Source: Nitrospiraceae bacterium (GTDB taxonomy: Bacteria > Nitrospirota > Nitrospiria > Nitrospirales > UBA2166). Taken from it: a stretch of DNA of 26,988 nucleotides. Made by a program: the position numbers. Every line of letters begins with the position of its first letter. Position 1 is the stretch's first letter. The stretch spans positions 62,001 to 88,988 of the forward strand of contig PBSN01000013.1 of assembly GCA_002726235.1 (NCBI GenBank). Direction: 5' to 3'. Shown one piece after another: positions 1-3,000 of the stretch.

Positions 1-3000
1 ACGTGGCATGATTCAGGGAAGCAAGTTCCTTTCGCATAAATCGCCTAACCGTTATGGGCAGAATACTCGAGTTGCTGGCGATGTCGACCAGTGGGTGCAG
101 GCCGGCCATGCCCGTTTCTTCTACCTGACGGCTTGTCAGTGGACCAACTGTAGCTGCGCTGCAAGCGACCTGTCGGAAACCATTGCGGATCAGACAGTCA
201 GAATGCCGCAGCAGCTCCAAAGTACCGATGCCGATCATGCGATTCAGGTCTTAAAAGAAAGAATGCAGAATCGTGGGTTGGTGCTGGTGCATCAAGACGT
301 GTATGCCCGTGATGTCACTGAGATGGCGGATATCGTTTTGCCTGCCGCACAGTGGGGCGAGGCTGACTTGACGCGTGCTCAGGGTGAGCGGCGTATGCGT
401 GCGTACAGTAAGTTCACCGATCCTCCCGGAGATGCCAAGCCGGACTGGTGGATTACACAAAAGATTGGGCAGTATGCAGGGTTTGGGGCAAACGGCTTTA
501 ACTGGAAGACCAACCGCGACGTGTTGAAAGAAGCCGCGCGTTATTCCAGAAAGGGCGTGTTGGAGTATGCCCCGCTGATTCGGTACACCACCCGCTTGAA
601 AGCGGATCCGTTCAAGTTCATCCAGTCCTTGGGGTCGACAGGTTTGCAGACGCCCATTCGGTTGGACTTGGGCAAGTTGGTTGGAACCAAAAAGCTCCAC
701 TATGAATCTGCGCCGCAGATGCGTCACGAAGAGAACACCACGCACCACAAAAAGCTGTTCAACTGGTTCACCTTCTCCACAGGGAAGGCGATGTTCTTCA
801 AGACCGATTGGCGGCTGTTCTCTGATTACTTTGAGCGGATTAAACCACGCGGTGATGAACTGTGGGTGACCAACGGCCGCGTGAATGAAATCTGGCAGTC
901 CTTGTATGACGATCTTCGTCGTCCATATATCATGCAGCGGTATCCGATGAACTTCATCGAGATGCATAAAGACGATGCTGCCGCGCGTGGTATTGAGACG
1001 GGCGATCTCGTCGCGGTCGAAAACGATGACCTGCTGATTCAAACCGGTGGTCAGTTCGGTGTCCGCGATGAAGACTCGCTCTTTACGGGGCTGATGAAGA
1101 ATGGGCACATCAAACGGTCTCGTGCCGCTCTGACCGCTATGGCTGTTGTGAATACCGACGTCAAGAAGGGCGTCACCTTCATGTACTTCCTGTGGCCAGG
1201 GTCTTCGTTTAACAGCTTGATGCATGCTGTTCCGGATCCGATTACTGCTGCTCCGCGGTATAAGACTGCGAAGGGCCGGATTCGTAAGATCGGTGAGACG
1301 GCTGCGAAGCGGAGCGGGATCCTCAGGGGTCTTGAGCACAAAAACACCATGCCGGAATGGGCCTAACATCACCCTATTGAGGTATGTGATTAACACGCAA
1401 CGTGACATATGGACTGGTGCCTTGCGAGGAGGCAGTATTCTCCTCGCAAGGGCCTGGTTCGTGCATGAAATTAACTTTCGCAACTACAGTGTTTCGAGTT
1501 AGAGAAAGAGGGGAGGATCTAAGTCACATGAAAAAGCTACTTACACTTGCGGTGGCCGGCGTCTTTTTAGCCTTTGGCTTTGCCGCGACTGCGGATGCGC
1601 AGATTAAAAAACCAGGTTTCCAGAAAAAAGCTCCAAAAATGCCGAAGACGGCTTATGCTGAAGGTTCCGCTGGCGGCGGATCTGTGGCCGGGAAAGTGTC
1701 CTACTCTGGCAAGGTGCCGGATCCAAAGCCGTTTACCATCAGCAAAAATCCTGAAGTTTGTGGAATTGAAGGCAGTGGAAAAGCAACGAGTGGCGGCCAG
1801 CAGTACTCTACAGAGGGCCAGCGAGTCTTCCACTTCACCTATGCGCCGGGCGGTGTCGCACAGCATGCTGTTGTCTTCATCGAGGGCATTGAAACCGGCA
1901 AGCCGTGGGGCGATTTTGGCGCAAAGATGGACATTCGTGCCGAGGATTGCGCATTTCTTGAGTACCAGAACCTCGTCCGTGACGGAACCACCGTGTTTGA
2001 GACGGTCAACCTTGACTCCGTACTCCACAACCCGCATACGTTCTATTTTGCGGGCAAAGCGCGGAAGACCTTCTTTAACGTAGCCGTCAACCCCAAAGGC
2101 GAAAAAGGCGATAAGACCGGATTCACCTTCGCAGGCAAGATGGCGATGAAAAAGGGCAAGGCTCGCGTTTTCAAGTTAGAGTGCGACCAGCATGATTTCA
2201 TGCATTCATGGGGTTGGAATGCGTCAAACCCTTACGCGCAAATCGTCGCGGCTGATGGAACCTACACTTTGGATGGCGTTCCGGATGGAACCTACAATGT
2301 GTGTGTCTGGCATCCAGAGACCGGGATTTGGTGTGATGAAGTGGCTGTTGCTGGGGCAACGACTCACGACTTCACCATTTGCAACAAAATGAAAAAAGGC
2401 TGCTCGTAAACCTTTAAAGGCCGATTAAACTGGAGGTAATGCAATGAAAACTCCGTTAGGGAAATACGCTATTGCGGTAGCGGGGATTGCCGTGGCCTTT
2501 GGGTTCTTCGTGGCAATATCCGTTACTCCGAGTGCGGTTCAGGCCGGGACGACCATCATCACGGTACCTGACGTTGCGCCGCTGCCGCCGGCGCCATTTA
2601 CCGACGCCCGAATCGTCAATATCGGGCGCCAGATGTTTTTTGACAAGATGCTGGCTGCTGATGGACAGCAGGGTTGCAAATTGTGTCATGATCCGAAGTT
2701 TGGATGGGCGCATGATAAGCAAATTTCACCGGGCTATCCTTCGACCATGCATTGGCGGAATTCGCAATCTGTCATGAACACAGCCCATCGCGATGGAGGT
2801 GAGTTGGGGCAGACCGGTAACTGGGGCGGGCTCAGTGCCGCCATACAGTACAAGTGGTCATCGCCGTATTTCCTCGCCCGTGACGGCCGTTTGGTCGTTC
2901 AGGTGTGGCGGCAGTTCCCTGGGTACATGAAGATGTGGAAGGAAGTGTATGGGCATATGCCGTCCTACCCAACCATGCGGGATAGCCTTGTTGAATTTAC

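Follow-up and report, generated by a model that had tools for sequence, protein, structure and literature searches.

A predicted type-1 copper protein with its cupredoxin nested in a beta-sandwich recurs upstream of a peroxidase gene in many idr-like clusters

An idr-like gene cluster of a Nitrospiraceae bacterium carries, between idrA and idrP2, a gene that we call X, raising the question of what kind of protein X encodes and which redox partner it might serve. The window analyzed is a 26,988-nucleotide stretch of contig PBSN01000013.1 (positions 62,001 to 88,988), and all features described here lie on its plus strand. The cluster runs idrP1-idrB-idrA-X-idrP2-cytochrome c. The window opens within the gene for the AioA/IdrA-like molybdopterin large subunit, the 3' part of which (2..1366) matches Pfam Molybdopterin and Molydop_binding; the whole gene (contig 60673-63366) encodes 897 aa, and the window begins downstream of the idrB-like and idrP1-type genes. 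The whole IdrA-like protein scores 428.8 bits against TIGR02693 (cut-off 359), and Rieske_3 was also matched. The protein shares 43–49% identity with IdrA-clade proteins versus 28–30% with the AioA of Thermus and Ralstonia, and in the tree an IdrA-like group of 83 rows was split from two AioA at 100, the Mo/Rieske pair of this cluster being on the IdrA side of this split. NCBIfam names AioAB 'arsenate reductase (azurin)'. The validated iodate reductases belong to a 72-row clade, and the window IdrA branches outside it, which leaves iodate a putative substrate of this molybdenum enzyme. A search of the genome from which the window comes (90.65% complete) with the nitrite oxidoreductase (NXR) model TIGR03479 reached at best 56 bits against a cut-off of 985 and so does not mark the organism as a nitrite oxidizer.

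Separated from X by 34 nt, the idrP2-type gene (2444..3775) encodes a di-haem peroxidase-family protein with two CxxCH motifs (CCP_MauG, 1.6e-22), the profile of which finds its best PDB matches, at about 2e-58, in bacterial di-haem cytochrome c peroxidases (CCPs). Both peroxidase genes beside idrBA are orthologous to those of idr: in a peroxidase tree made with FastTree, in which long branches were flagged, 58 'first' (promoter-proximal) and 58 'second' peroxidases separated at 99, with the window P2 falling among the first and P1 among the second. The cluster continues with a mono-haem c-type cytochrome of 163 aa (3919..4410; signal peptide, one CxxCH, Pfam Cytochrome_CBB3 and Cytochrom_C), conserved after idrP2 in genomes G001 and G025, and with a conserved tail of two genes. 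One encodes a protein without family assignment (165 aa, 4540-5037) and the other an FGE-sulfatase-like protein that is secreted (5094-5993); their G001 counterparts are 82% and 74% identical, respectively. Orthologues of X occupy the same cluster in G001, G003 and G025, as the genome-wide survey's note had reported, and the synteny holds even where identity falls to 42% for X and 52% for A (G025).

The survey's note had described X as a 335-aa ORF. The open frame at 1402-2409 is indeed present between idrA and idrP2, but the likely start is the ATG at 1528, which lies 8–9 nt 3' of the ribosome-binding site GGGGAGGA and gives a protein of 293 aa (1528..2409) with the N-terminus MKKLL. All 10 of 10 full-length close homologues also start at MKK. 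The residue numbering used earlier for X already presupposes this ATG. The first 24 residues, MKKLLTLAVAGVFLAFGFAATADA (1528..1599), read by inspection as a Sec-type signal peptide; the structural model has a pLDDT of 50–58 over residues 1-30, and the Lys/Pro-rich linker that follows the signal peptide is also of low confidence. By eye, P1, P2 and the cytochrome c likewise begin with signal-like N-termini, and a TAT motif is present in IdrB. Judged from its signal peptide, X is likely to be secreted and periplasmic.

The spacers flanking X were also considered. The idrA-X spacer contains a 13-bp hairpin (1420..1451) within a region (1367-1530) that folds at -53.8 kcal/mol (z = -3.0), and G001 and G003 retain the hairpin with bases altered on both arms. 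An intrinsic terminator at this position was rejected: no T-run follows the hairpin, it is absent from the list of terminator-like sites, and contigs from RNA libraries cross it. Such contigs, which may include DNA, cover X in three studies, one of them spanning 1-2406 with no differences. In four of four RNA-library runs the contigs end near 2403-2424 and restart at 2424-2521; no hairpin was seen in the X-idrP2 spacer. These end points hint only weakly at a boundary in transcription or processing at the X-idrP2 junction.

A fold check, which the survey's note had lacked, was provided by an AlphaFold model of X (pLDDT 88.7, pTM 0.86). Residues 129-233 (1912..2226) adopt in this model the Greek-key beta-barrel of the cupredoxin fold. 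The best structural match found with VIA-align was 4hcf (Z 11.9, rmsd 1.8 over 85 residues), and the same region matched nitrosocyanin (Z 10.5), azurin (9.1), plastocyanin (8.6), amicyanin (8.4) and 5fc9 (8.4). Amicyanin was the top match in Foldseek (1.5e-4), with a probability of 1.00 for amicyanin, NirK and 5fc9 alike. Searches of the PDB with a profile of X bore out the matches noted earlier, to NOMO2 (1.1e-14), 5fc9 (3.2e-8) and amicyanin (3.4e-5). Significant PDB matches came from the profile and not from phmmer with the single X sequence, the best E value of which was 0.73.

The HNxH and CxxHxxM motifs of the X profile align onto those of amicyanin in the HMM alignment. The predicted copper ligands are H167 (2026-2028), C219 (2182-2184), H222 (2191-2193) and M225 (2200-2202), which lie in the appropriate strands and form the His...Cys-x2-His-x2-Met set that the survey's note had read from the sequence. 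Each of the four is at least 90% conserved among 140 family sequences, and 157 of the 170 family proteins examined contain CxxHxxM. The sequence profile, the model and the fold search thus agree with the earlier view of X as a secreted cupredoxin, and X is likely to be a type-1 ('blue') copper protein, with copper binding predicted from its ligand set. X has no match to Pfam Cupredoxin_1 (PF13473) at E≤0.01, and it does not belong to the amicyanin family proper, having no NCBIfam match at E≤1e-3 and no mau genes in its cluster.

The survey's note had pictured the cupredoxin as fused to a beta-sandwich, and here the structural alignments gave a different arrangement. With VIA-align, X matched 1qmu (Z 9.6, 78 residues aligned, rmsd 1.9) and 5aq0 (Z 9.4, 79 aligned) across residues 51 to 287 or 288, although only about 78 residues were aligned over this span. 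Because the cupredoxin occupies residues 129-233 of the same span, the two domains are nested rather than placed end to end. The seven-stranded prealbumin-like (CarboxypepD_reg/transthyretin-like) sandwich is split in two: its first two strands (model strands 51-59 and 67-70, also aligned in 1qmu and 5aq0) lie in residues 51-70 (1678..1737), and the remaining strands, marked by fn3_3, by conservation and by the model, lie in residues 234-287 (2227..2388), which contain a near-invariant W261-H262-P263. In the model, then, strands B and C of a transthyretin/CarboxypepD_reg-like sandwich are separated by an inserted amicyanin-like cupredoxin. We are not aware of another electron carrier with this architecture, although no literature search was aimed at it.

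The description of X as belonging to a family without Pfam models applies to its cupredoxin part but not to its sandwich. X itself has no NCBIfam match and a single, sub-threshold Pfam match, to fn3_3 (22.3 bits against a cut-off of 24.4), which covers residues 236-279 and profile positions 27-73 only. Among 140 family members, however, 124 match fn3_3 and 119 match CarboxypepD_reg (PF13620) at E≤1e-3, compared to one for Cupredoxin_1. An exhaustive search with X returned 1,934, 285 and 4 representatives at E values of 1e-3, 1e-10 and 1e-30. The first two counts agree with those given earlier, but the 1,934 include proteins picked up by their sandwich alone (for example P0070, P0089 and P0145, all of which lack CxxHxxM). 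The Atlas neighbours and automatic names were as the survey's note had given them, the label 'rhamnogalacturonan lyase domain' assigned to the X family by automatic pipelines being a mislabel.

We examined the association of X with idr genes from both sides. From the idr side, we took 80 IdrA-like loci from dereplicated genomes, out of at least 534 confirmed candidates, and sought a family member within 1 kb. X was present in 38 loci and absent from 24 with adequate flanks, the other 18 being undecidable, so that X is found in 38 of the 62 that can be decided. Loci with X come from Planctomycetota, Rokubacteria, Lindowbacteria, Nitrospinota and Alpha-, Beta- and Gammaproteobacteria. In 34 of the 38, X is followed by a peroxidase as the next gene of the cluster, with a gap of 150 bp or less in 28 of these, and all 29 of 29 peroxidases directly after X match P2 best. 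X precedes the peroxidase in four different layouts: XPPBA, BAXPP, BAXP and P1-B-A-X-P2. Rocyclaceae-type order X-P2-P1-B-A is seen in loci of Rhodocyclaceae, and Stieleria marina K23_9 was the one cultured strain found to have X-P-P-B-A. An alphaproteobacterial locus has the order B-A-dihaem cytochrome c-X-CtaG-DUF4382-COX1-FixO. We also considered whether X replaces a small cytochrome c. Among peroxidase-containing loci, a nearby CxxCH ORF was found in 13 of 39 with X and in 10 of 22 without (Fisher p 0.41); the two are not anticorrelated, so X is not a simple replacement.

From the side of the family, the association is weaker. The survey's note had found idr genes in about half of its sufficiently long metagenome loci and had called X a likely dedicated carrier of this cluster type; in species-dereplicated genomes, IdrA was present in 10 of 79 family loci, or 10 of 60 when only loci of at least 6 kb were counted. 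The context of the wider family, left open earlier, proved to consist mostly of other redox systems, among them giant multicopper oxidases, cytochrome bd-like oxidases and cytochromes c, so that 'dedicated' does not describe the family as a whole. P0062, P0118 and P0040 combine an X-like module with cytochrome c domains. The window itself contains a paralogue, X2 (21877..22734; 285 aa, 38% identical to X over the matched stretch, with HNPH, CDQHEYM and WHP motifs), which immediately precedes a giant multicopper-oxidase-like ORF (from 22894 to the end of the window), a pairing also found in G043 and in many Nitrospirota and Nitrospinota loci. In genome G023 the order is multicopper oxidase, X, X, HEAT, X, methyltransferase, PCP_red and bd-like oxidase.

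We consider it reasonably probable that X would serve as a one-electron copper carrier in the idr-like module, with IdrP2 as its most likely partner. The recurrence of X directly before a peroxidase gene in many idr-like clusters suggests that it is probably a copper electron shuttle for that system, and its position directly upstream of an idrP2-type gene across four layouts points to IdrP2 as the partner. Azurin and pseudoazurin donate electrons to bacterial CCPs, and azurin accepts electrons from arsenite oxidase. In the module, consisting of idrP1, idrB, idrA, X, idrP2 and the cytochrome c, X would carry one electron at a time and would reduce IdrP2 as azurin and pseudoazurin reduce the bacterial CCPs. 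The Rieske subunit IdrB may be a second partner, by analogy with azurin and arsenite oxidase. A complex prediction for X residues 41-293 and IdrP2 residues 34-443, made with alignments, returned 'no answer' (scores 0.00/0.00) and bears on this pairing in neither direction.

A first alternative is that X is a general-purpose periplasmic copper carrier of the respiratory chain, with no dedicated partner in the idr-like operon. Each Nitrospirales genome contains 1–9 family matches in many contexts, and in both trees the window X is nearest to non-idr paralogues of Nitrospirota and Nitrospinota rather than to other idr-linked X. A single clade of all idr-linked X was rejected (p-AU 1.15e-5; 27 idr-linked rows in a 60-row tree), the idr-linked group having been defined by context after the FastTree tree had been seen. 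It is possible that idr-linked X is paraphyletic, the paralogues having expanded from an idr-linked ancestor. The canonical iodate reductase order, given as idrP2-idrP1-idrB-idrA for Denitromonas IR-12, Pseudomonas SCT and Azonexus NCP973 in the available passages of PMC10989891, corresponds to the P2, P1, B and A orthologues of the present cluster, but the window has an X-idrP2 unit after idrA, whereas X is missing from the idrP2-P1-B-A cluster of the two validated iodate reducers examined, Denitromonas iodatirespirans IR-12 and Azonexus hydrophilus NCP973, so that iodate respiration in these two does not depend on it.

Copper-based electron carriage has also been proposed for cupredoxin-like copper-binding proteins encoded with NXR, cytochrome bd-like oxidases and multicopper oxidases in Nitrospira, Nitrospina and Kuenenia (available passages of Lücker et al. 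2013, PMC3578206). Those uncharacterized proteins probably belong to the X family, judging by matching contexts rather than accessions; in the same passages of PMC3578206 they are neither linked to idr nor described as nested. Against a general carrier stand the placement of X immediately before the idrP2-type gene in all four layouts, the clades of idr-linked X, which mirror the IdrA clades, and the distribution among 61 Nitrospirales genomes, in which IdrA-like proteins occur in four and the idr-type orthologue of X in those four and G002 only. The G002 contig begins inside X. Taking these points together, we regard a general carrier as unlikely.

The conserved X-P2 gene pair could also mean that X is a substrate or obligate partner of a MauG/MbnH-like IdrP2, which would oxidize a residue such as W261 to build or tune a metal site, by analogy with MbnH and its copper-binding partner MbnP; X would then handle copper instead of shuttling electrons. 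The idrP2-type profile matches 6e1c, which we take to be MbnH, at 2.4e-56 over positions 40-354, nearly its whole length, compared to positions 32-238 only for the bacterial CCPs. W261-H262 is at least 90% conserved in the 140 sequences, within a domain otherwise expected to act as a scaffold. P2 does match the MbnH-family model TIGR04039, but its 134.7 bits are far under the cut-off of 362.85. NCBIfam presumably includes an MbnP model, and X, having no NCBIfam match at E≤1e-3, is thus not matched by any MbnP-family model; nor was an MbnP structure among the listed sequence or fold matches of X. Moreover, W261-H262-P263 is equally conserved in paralogues that lack a peroxidase neighbor, and the canonical type-1 ligand set of X is already complete. 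We consider this reading very unlikely.

We give equally little credence to X as a copper chaperone or delivery protein for a multicopper or haem-copper oxidase. The best structural neighbors of X include FtrB, the N-terminal cupredoxin domain of EfeO and CupA, and it counts against the carrier reading that none of 4hcf, FtrB and the EfeO domain is a classical electron carrier. The family's gene neighbors include CtaG/Cox11, DUF420 and giant multicopper oxidases. However, His-Cys-His-Met ligands with amicyanin spacing are a type-1 signature of electron transfer, the fusions found in the family are to cytochrome c domains, and the idr-like cluster of the window encodes no other copper enzyme. 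A catalytic X that itself acts on an iodine or oxygen species, reducing for example HOI or superoxide at an accessible copper site, is extremely improbable: nitrosocyanin is a close structural match and the top PDB match by sequence, 5fc9, bears the title of a purple cupredoxin and has an open binding site, but X keeps the axial Met that 5fc9 lacks, an extra conserved ligand near the site is not evident, and most paralogues lie away from idr genes.

X as an electron carrier in the idr-like module can be compared with several known systems. Amicyanin (MauC) shares with X the type-1 H-N-x-H and C-x2-H-x2-M spacing, but the two are only 15–17% identical, and amicyanin is a free-standing protein of about 105 aa rather than part of a nested 293-aa protein. 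Amicyanin is periplasmic and is encoded in the operon of its partner, which also holds a di-haem CCP_MauG-family gene; it serves as the electron acceptor of methylamine dehydrogenase, whereas the cluster of X encodes a Mo/Rieske enzyme and peroxidases. The azurin-AioAB and azurin/pseudoazurin-CCP pairs provide a precedent for a small cupredoxin that serves the nearest characterized relatives of both cluster enzymes. Azurin and pseudoazurin are single-domain proteins whose genes lie elsewhere in the genome and whose ligand loops are longer. Nmar_1307, the purple cupredoxin of 5fc9, carries an Arg at the position of the axial Met of X, and like 4hcf (Cupredoxin_1) it is a single-domain protein. 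No paper tying an X-type cupredoxin to an iodate reductase came up in full-text searches, though the supplements of idr papers may list neighborhood genes.

It is a long shot, but the X-IdrP2 pair could mark a copper-dependent branch of Idr that is perhaps oxidative in lineages near nitrifiers. In it X, as a high-potential blue-copper protein, would receive electrons from an IdrAB-like enzyme that oxidizes iodine in a reduced form or a different oxyanion precursor, and would hand them on to a terminal oxidase. The lineages named for this reading are Nitrospirota, Nitrospinota and the alphaproteobacterial clusters with the order B-A-cytochrome c-X-cbb3-oxidase. If true, such a branch would give marine iodate formation an enzyme system or, running the other way, would serve anaerobic nitrite oxidation linked to iodate.

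To our knowledge, neither the physiological electron donor of iodate reductase nor the real role of its two peroxidases has been established. As a fifth conserved gene, present in about 60% of the decidable IdrA-like loci and so regularly placed upstream of a peroxidase, X is a candidate for the missing link, which suggests that environmental iodate metabolism is partly copper-dependent. Beyond the idr-like clusters, a large unmodelled family that recurs in the oxidase and multicopper-oxidase clusters of nitrite oxidizers is now named and structurally defined.

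The open frame between the idrA-like and idrP2-type genes (1402-2409, plus strand) holds 335 codons from a GTG start, as the genome-wide survey's note had described, but the protein encoded there (X) is likely 293 aa rather than 335 aa in length, based on a GGAGG before ATG 1528 and on the starts of homologues. ATG 1528 is almost certainly the true start, placing the gene at 1528-2409 on the plus strand. This codon stands 8-9 nt 3' of GGGGAGGA; two genomes of the same order (G001 and G003) share the GGAGG in their orthologous spacers but not the sequence 5' of it, and MKK(L/M/I) at this position forms the N-terminus in 10 of 10 full-length close homologues. 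The N-terminus, MKKLLTLAVAGVFLAFGFAATADA, reads as a putative Sec signal peptide and is followed by a Lys/Pro-rich linker. The residue numbers reported earlier for H167, C219, H222, and M225 are those of the 293-aa form.

RNA libraries of three studies contained 54-98% of the sampled words of window positions 1-4500. Contigs from such libraries cover X at 99% identity or better, one spanning 1-2406 with zero differences, and the idrA-X spacer is bridged by contigs of three studies (runs labelled X1, X3, and X6). This coverage is consistent with transcription but is no proof of it, as such libraries can contain DNA. The spacer folds at -53.8 kcal/mol (z = -3.0) and contains a 13-bp hairpin (1420-1451) with no T-run. 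The same hairpin, altered on both arms, is present in G001 and G003; a role in mRNA stability or processing is possible.

We examined X by profile and structural comparison. Pfam gave a sub-threshold match to fn3_3 alone (residues 236-279) and NCBIfam gave no match. Residues conserved at 90% or more in a 140-row alignment of the family are C78, C141, N161, D163, H167, C219, H222, and M225, together with P235, Y236, G244, P252, W261, and H262; G254 is invariant. The X profile matched the blue-copper protein 5fc9 (3.2e-8) and amicyanin (3.4e-5) in the PDB, with the HNxH and CxxHxxM motifs of X superposed on amicyanin's own in the profile alignment, and its C-terminal part matched the Ig-like domains of NOMO2 (1.1e-14). 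An AlphaFold2 model based on the 140-row alignment (pLDDT 88.7, pTM 0.86) had as its best Foldseek matches amicyanin, NirK, 5fc9, pseudoazurin, and the CuA domain of N2O reductase. A second fold search, independent of Foldseek, placed a cupredoxin at residues 129-233 (Z-scores: 4hcf 11.9, FtrB 11.1, EfeO N-domain 10.8, nitrosocyanin 10.5, azurin 9.1, amicyanin 8.4). A carboxypeptidase-D transthyretin-like domain is spread over residues 51-287, with just 78-79 residues aligned (1qmu, Z 9.6; 5aq0, Z 9.4). In the predicted structure this sandwich is split, with two strands at 51-70 and the remaining strands at 234-287, and the insertion between them is a 71-128 extension plus the cupredoxin. Because the sandwich match encloses the cupredoxin yet aligns so few residues, and because fn3_3 covers only profile positions 27-73, X is a nested two-domain protein and not, as had been thought, a cupredoxin fused end to end with a sandwich. 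The close idr-type orthologues of Nitrospirales (rows 1-12 of alignment A1) are alone in having four extra cysteines (C259, C269, C285, and C292; residues 255-293, window 2290-2409) and a C-terminal C-x-K-x-KKG-C tail, which may provide two additional disulfides or a metal site.

The strength of the link between X and idr clusters depends on the side from which it is viewed. The survey's note, drawing on metagenome contigs, had found idr genes beside the closest environmental relatives of X in about half of the loci that were long enough to judge. The share is well below this in species-dereplicated genomes, where the 79 best family loci include 10 with IdrA, 11 with IdrB, and 16 with peroxidases, and where IdrA is present in 10 of the 60 loci of at least 6 kb. 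Seen from the idr side, the association is strong: among the best 80 of at least 534 candidate IdrA-like loci, 38 have an X-family gene no more than 1 kb from the core of idrA-like (A), idrB-like (B), and di-haem peroxidase (P) genes, and all 38 of these members contain CxxHxxM. X is absent from 24 loci having at least 1.5 kb of flank on both sides, and 18 are undecidable. The X-bearing loci come from Planctomycetota, Lindowbacteria, Rokubacteria, Nitrospinota, Rhodothermota, and Alpha-, Beta-, and Gammaproteobacteria. No X was found at the idr loci of Denitromonas IR-12 or Azonexus NCP973, the two validated iodate reducers examined; the latter has a small cytochrome c after idrA. Among 61 genomes of the window's order, IdrA-like proteins occur in four (the window's genome G000, G001, G003, and G025), and idr-type X in these and in G002, in which the contig begins inside X. 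Neither was found in G004, which belongs to the same genus and is 96% complete. Some Planctomycetota/Verrucomicrobiota idr-like loci lacking X have instead a giant multicopper-oxidase (MCO)-like ORF before the peroxidase and B-A genes, located immediately upstream in place of X in L108, L131, L141, and L146. The ORF of L108, the one such locus scanned with Pfam, contains Cu-oxidase_3 and a C-terminal CCP_MauG domain; L094 reads X, MCO-like ORF, P, P, B, A.

Within these loci the conserved element is the X-idrP2 pair. The next cluster gene 3' of X encodes a peroxidase in 34 of the 38 X-bearing loci, with a gap of at most 150 bp in 28, and for each of the 29 distinct peroxidases encoded directly after X the best match is the P2 of the window. 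Passages of PMC10989891 give the canonical transcription order as idrP2, idrP1, idrB, idrA, which we confirmed in L176 and L181. The layouts observed are XPPBA (most loci), BAXPP, BAXP, and the window's P1-B-A-X-P2. In a FastTree analysis of 120 peroxidases, with long branches flagged for the window's rows, promoter-proximal 'first' copies are cleanly separated from B-adjacent 'second' copies (support 99); P2 of the window and of G025 group with the first (idrP2) and P1 of each with the second (idrP1). On this basis the window's cluster looks like a canonical cluster with its X-idrP2 unit shifted behind idrA. The four X-bearing loci without peroxidases (L117, L123, L128, and L138; Alphaproteobacteria and Granulosicoccaceae) have the order B-A-X, and their IdrA-like enzymes form a deep-branching clade. 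L117, the one annotated with Pfam, reads B, A, dihaem cytochrome c, X, CtaG/Cox11, DUF4382, COX1, FixO/cytochrome c (9557-15809), setting X between the Mo enzyme and a cbb3-like haem-copper oxidase. This peroxidase-free arrangement looks oxidising rather than reducing.

Upstream of the window, the contig encodes an idrP1-type di-haem CCP_MauG protein (511 aa) and an idrB-like Rieske protein (193 aa; TIGR02694, 97.5 bits against a cut-off of 95.65) with the TAT motif TRRQVM. The window begins inside the gene for the IdrA-like molybdopterin large subunit (897 aa; TIGR02693, 428.8 bits against 359; Rieske_3 domain). X is followed on the plus strand by the idrP2-type di-haem CCP_MauG protein (443 aa, 2444-3775), a mono-haem cytochrome c (3919-4410), a 165-aa protein of no family, and, at the tail of the cluster, a secreted FGE-sulfatase-like protein (5094-5993). 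Identity of the large subunit to proteins of the IdrA clade is 43-49% (Denitromonas iodatirespirans IR-12, 43%; Azonexus hydrophilus NCP973, 43.8%), against only 28-30% to AioA of Thermus, Ralstonia, and Acuticoccus. With two AioA as the root, a FastTree of 85 large subunits recovers the IdrA-like group as a clade (support 100). The lineage made up of the window, G001, G025, and a single gammaproteobacterial MAG falls outside a 72-row clade (support 99) containing both validated iodate reducers and members from Planctomycetota, NC10, and Rokubacteria, which passages of PMC8692401 count as IdrA. Because the window's enzyme lies in the IdrA-like group yet outside the 72-row clade, 'idr-like' is a fair label and iodate a putative, unproven substrate. 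A TIGR03479 search of G000 (genome 90.65% complete) found no NxrA-like type II DMSO-reductase alpha subunit (best score 56 bits); nitrite oxidation is therefore not shown for this Nitrospirales organism.

The X family extends well beyond idr clusters. An exhaustive search reproduced the reported 1,934, 285, and 4 representatives at E of 1e-3, 1e-10, and 1e-30, respectively; as the size of a copper family, 1,934 is overstated because some matches, such as P0070, P0089, and P0145 (1,400-3,178 aa), arise through repeated sandwich domains only. Of 170 family proteins collected, 157 contain CxxHxxM. At E<=1e-3, Pfam matched fn3_3 in 124, CarboxypepD_reg in 119, and Cupredoxin_1 in 1 of the 140 aligned members: it detects the sandwich and overlooks the copper domain. 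Family matches occur in 59 of the 61 genomes of the order, mostly 2-9 each and often in tandem. G000 has two paralogues beyond X, one of which, X2 (285 aa, 21877-22734, plus strand), lies in the window directly upstream of a giant MCO-like ORF (more than 1,365 aa, cut by the contig end; Cu-oxidase_3 match; region 21877-26988). This MCO-X pairing recurs in 16 of the 79 best family loci and in the complete Nitrospirales genome G023, there with a cytochrome bd-like oxidase as well. Outside idr clusters, family members recur beside giant multicopper oxidases; subunit I of cytochrome bd-like oxidase together with HEAT-repeat, Usp/PCP_red, and radical-SAM/SPASM proteins; O-methyltransferase with DUF420; small cytochromes c; multihaem cytochrome c/EB_dh proteins; and FGE-sulfatase-like proteins. 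X-like modules are also fused to cytochrome c domains (P0062, P0118, and P0040). Passages of Lücker et al. 2013 (PMC3578206) noticed cupredoxin-like proteins in NXR clusters of the same type and proposed copper-based electron carriage as their role; these are probably the X family, an identity based on like context rather than on accession numbers.

Near X2, the minus strand (16530-21698) encodes a radical-SAM/SPASM/PCP_red protein, an FGE-sulfatase-like protein, and a PD40 beta-propeller protein. Secreted FGE-sulfatase-like proteins recur beside or near X-family members in 16 of the 79 best family loci; examples are those at window 5094-5993 and 18242-19276 (minus strand) and in L037, L042, L056, L062, L077, L096, and L184. 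FGE enzymes are copper-dependent. Further genes at 11507-16476 (minus strand), namely ThiF-like E1, ThiS-like, and PLP-dependent (PALP) genes in two tandem sets and one for a JAB/MPN protease, look like a sulfur-carrier system of cysteine or thiocarboxylate type unrelated to X.

The idr-linked X clades of Planctomycetota, the Nitrospinota group, Betaproteobacteria, and Alphaproteobacteria mirror the IdrA clades, which is what stable co-inheritance predicts. X of the window, G001, G002, and G025 falls inside a set of Nitrospirota/Nitrospinota paralogues (support 98) in both FastTree (135 rows) and an IQ-TREE mixture model (60 rows). A single clade of the 27 idr-linked X in the 60-row tree was rejected (p-AU 1.15e-5). 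Two histories fit the unrooted X tree alike: a local paralogue was taken into the X position in the window's lineage, or an idr-linked ancestor gave rise to the paralogue families of Nitrospirota/Nitrospinota.

We propose that X would act as a periplasmic one-electron copper carrier for the idr-like module, with IdrP2 its most likely partner and IdrB an alternative. Bacterial di-haem peroxidases head the PDB matches of the idrP2-type profile (about 2e-58); the di-haem enzyme 6e1c matches it equally well and along more of its length, a likeness that would suit IdrP2 modifying or maturing X. We rate this low because the type-1 ligand set of X is complete, because X matches no NCBIfam model, that of the MbnP family included, and because paralogues without a peroxidase neighbour conserve the near-invariant W261-H262-P263 just as well. 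Full-text searches found no literature joining 'cupredoxin' with 'iodate reductase' or 'idrABP1P2' with 'carboxypeptidase regulatory-like', and main-text passages of the idr papers (PMC8692401, PMC10989891, and PMC13455634) name four genes only. Cupredoxin electron carriers as a kind are already known, and the wider family had probably been noticed in NXR clusters. What is new is the nested architecture, the delimitation of the X family, and an X-idrP2 pairing conserved in about 60% of decidable IdrA-like loci.
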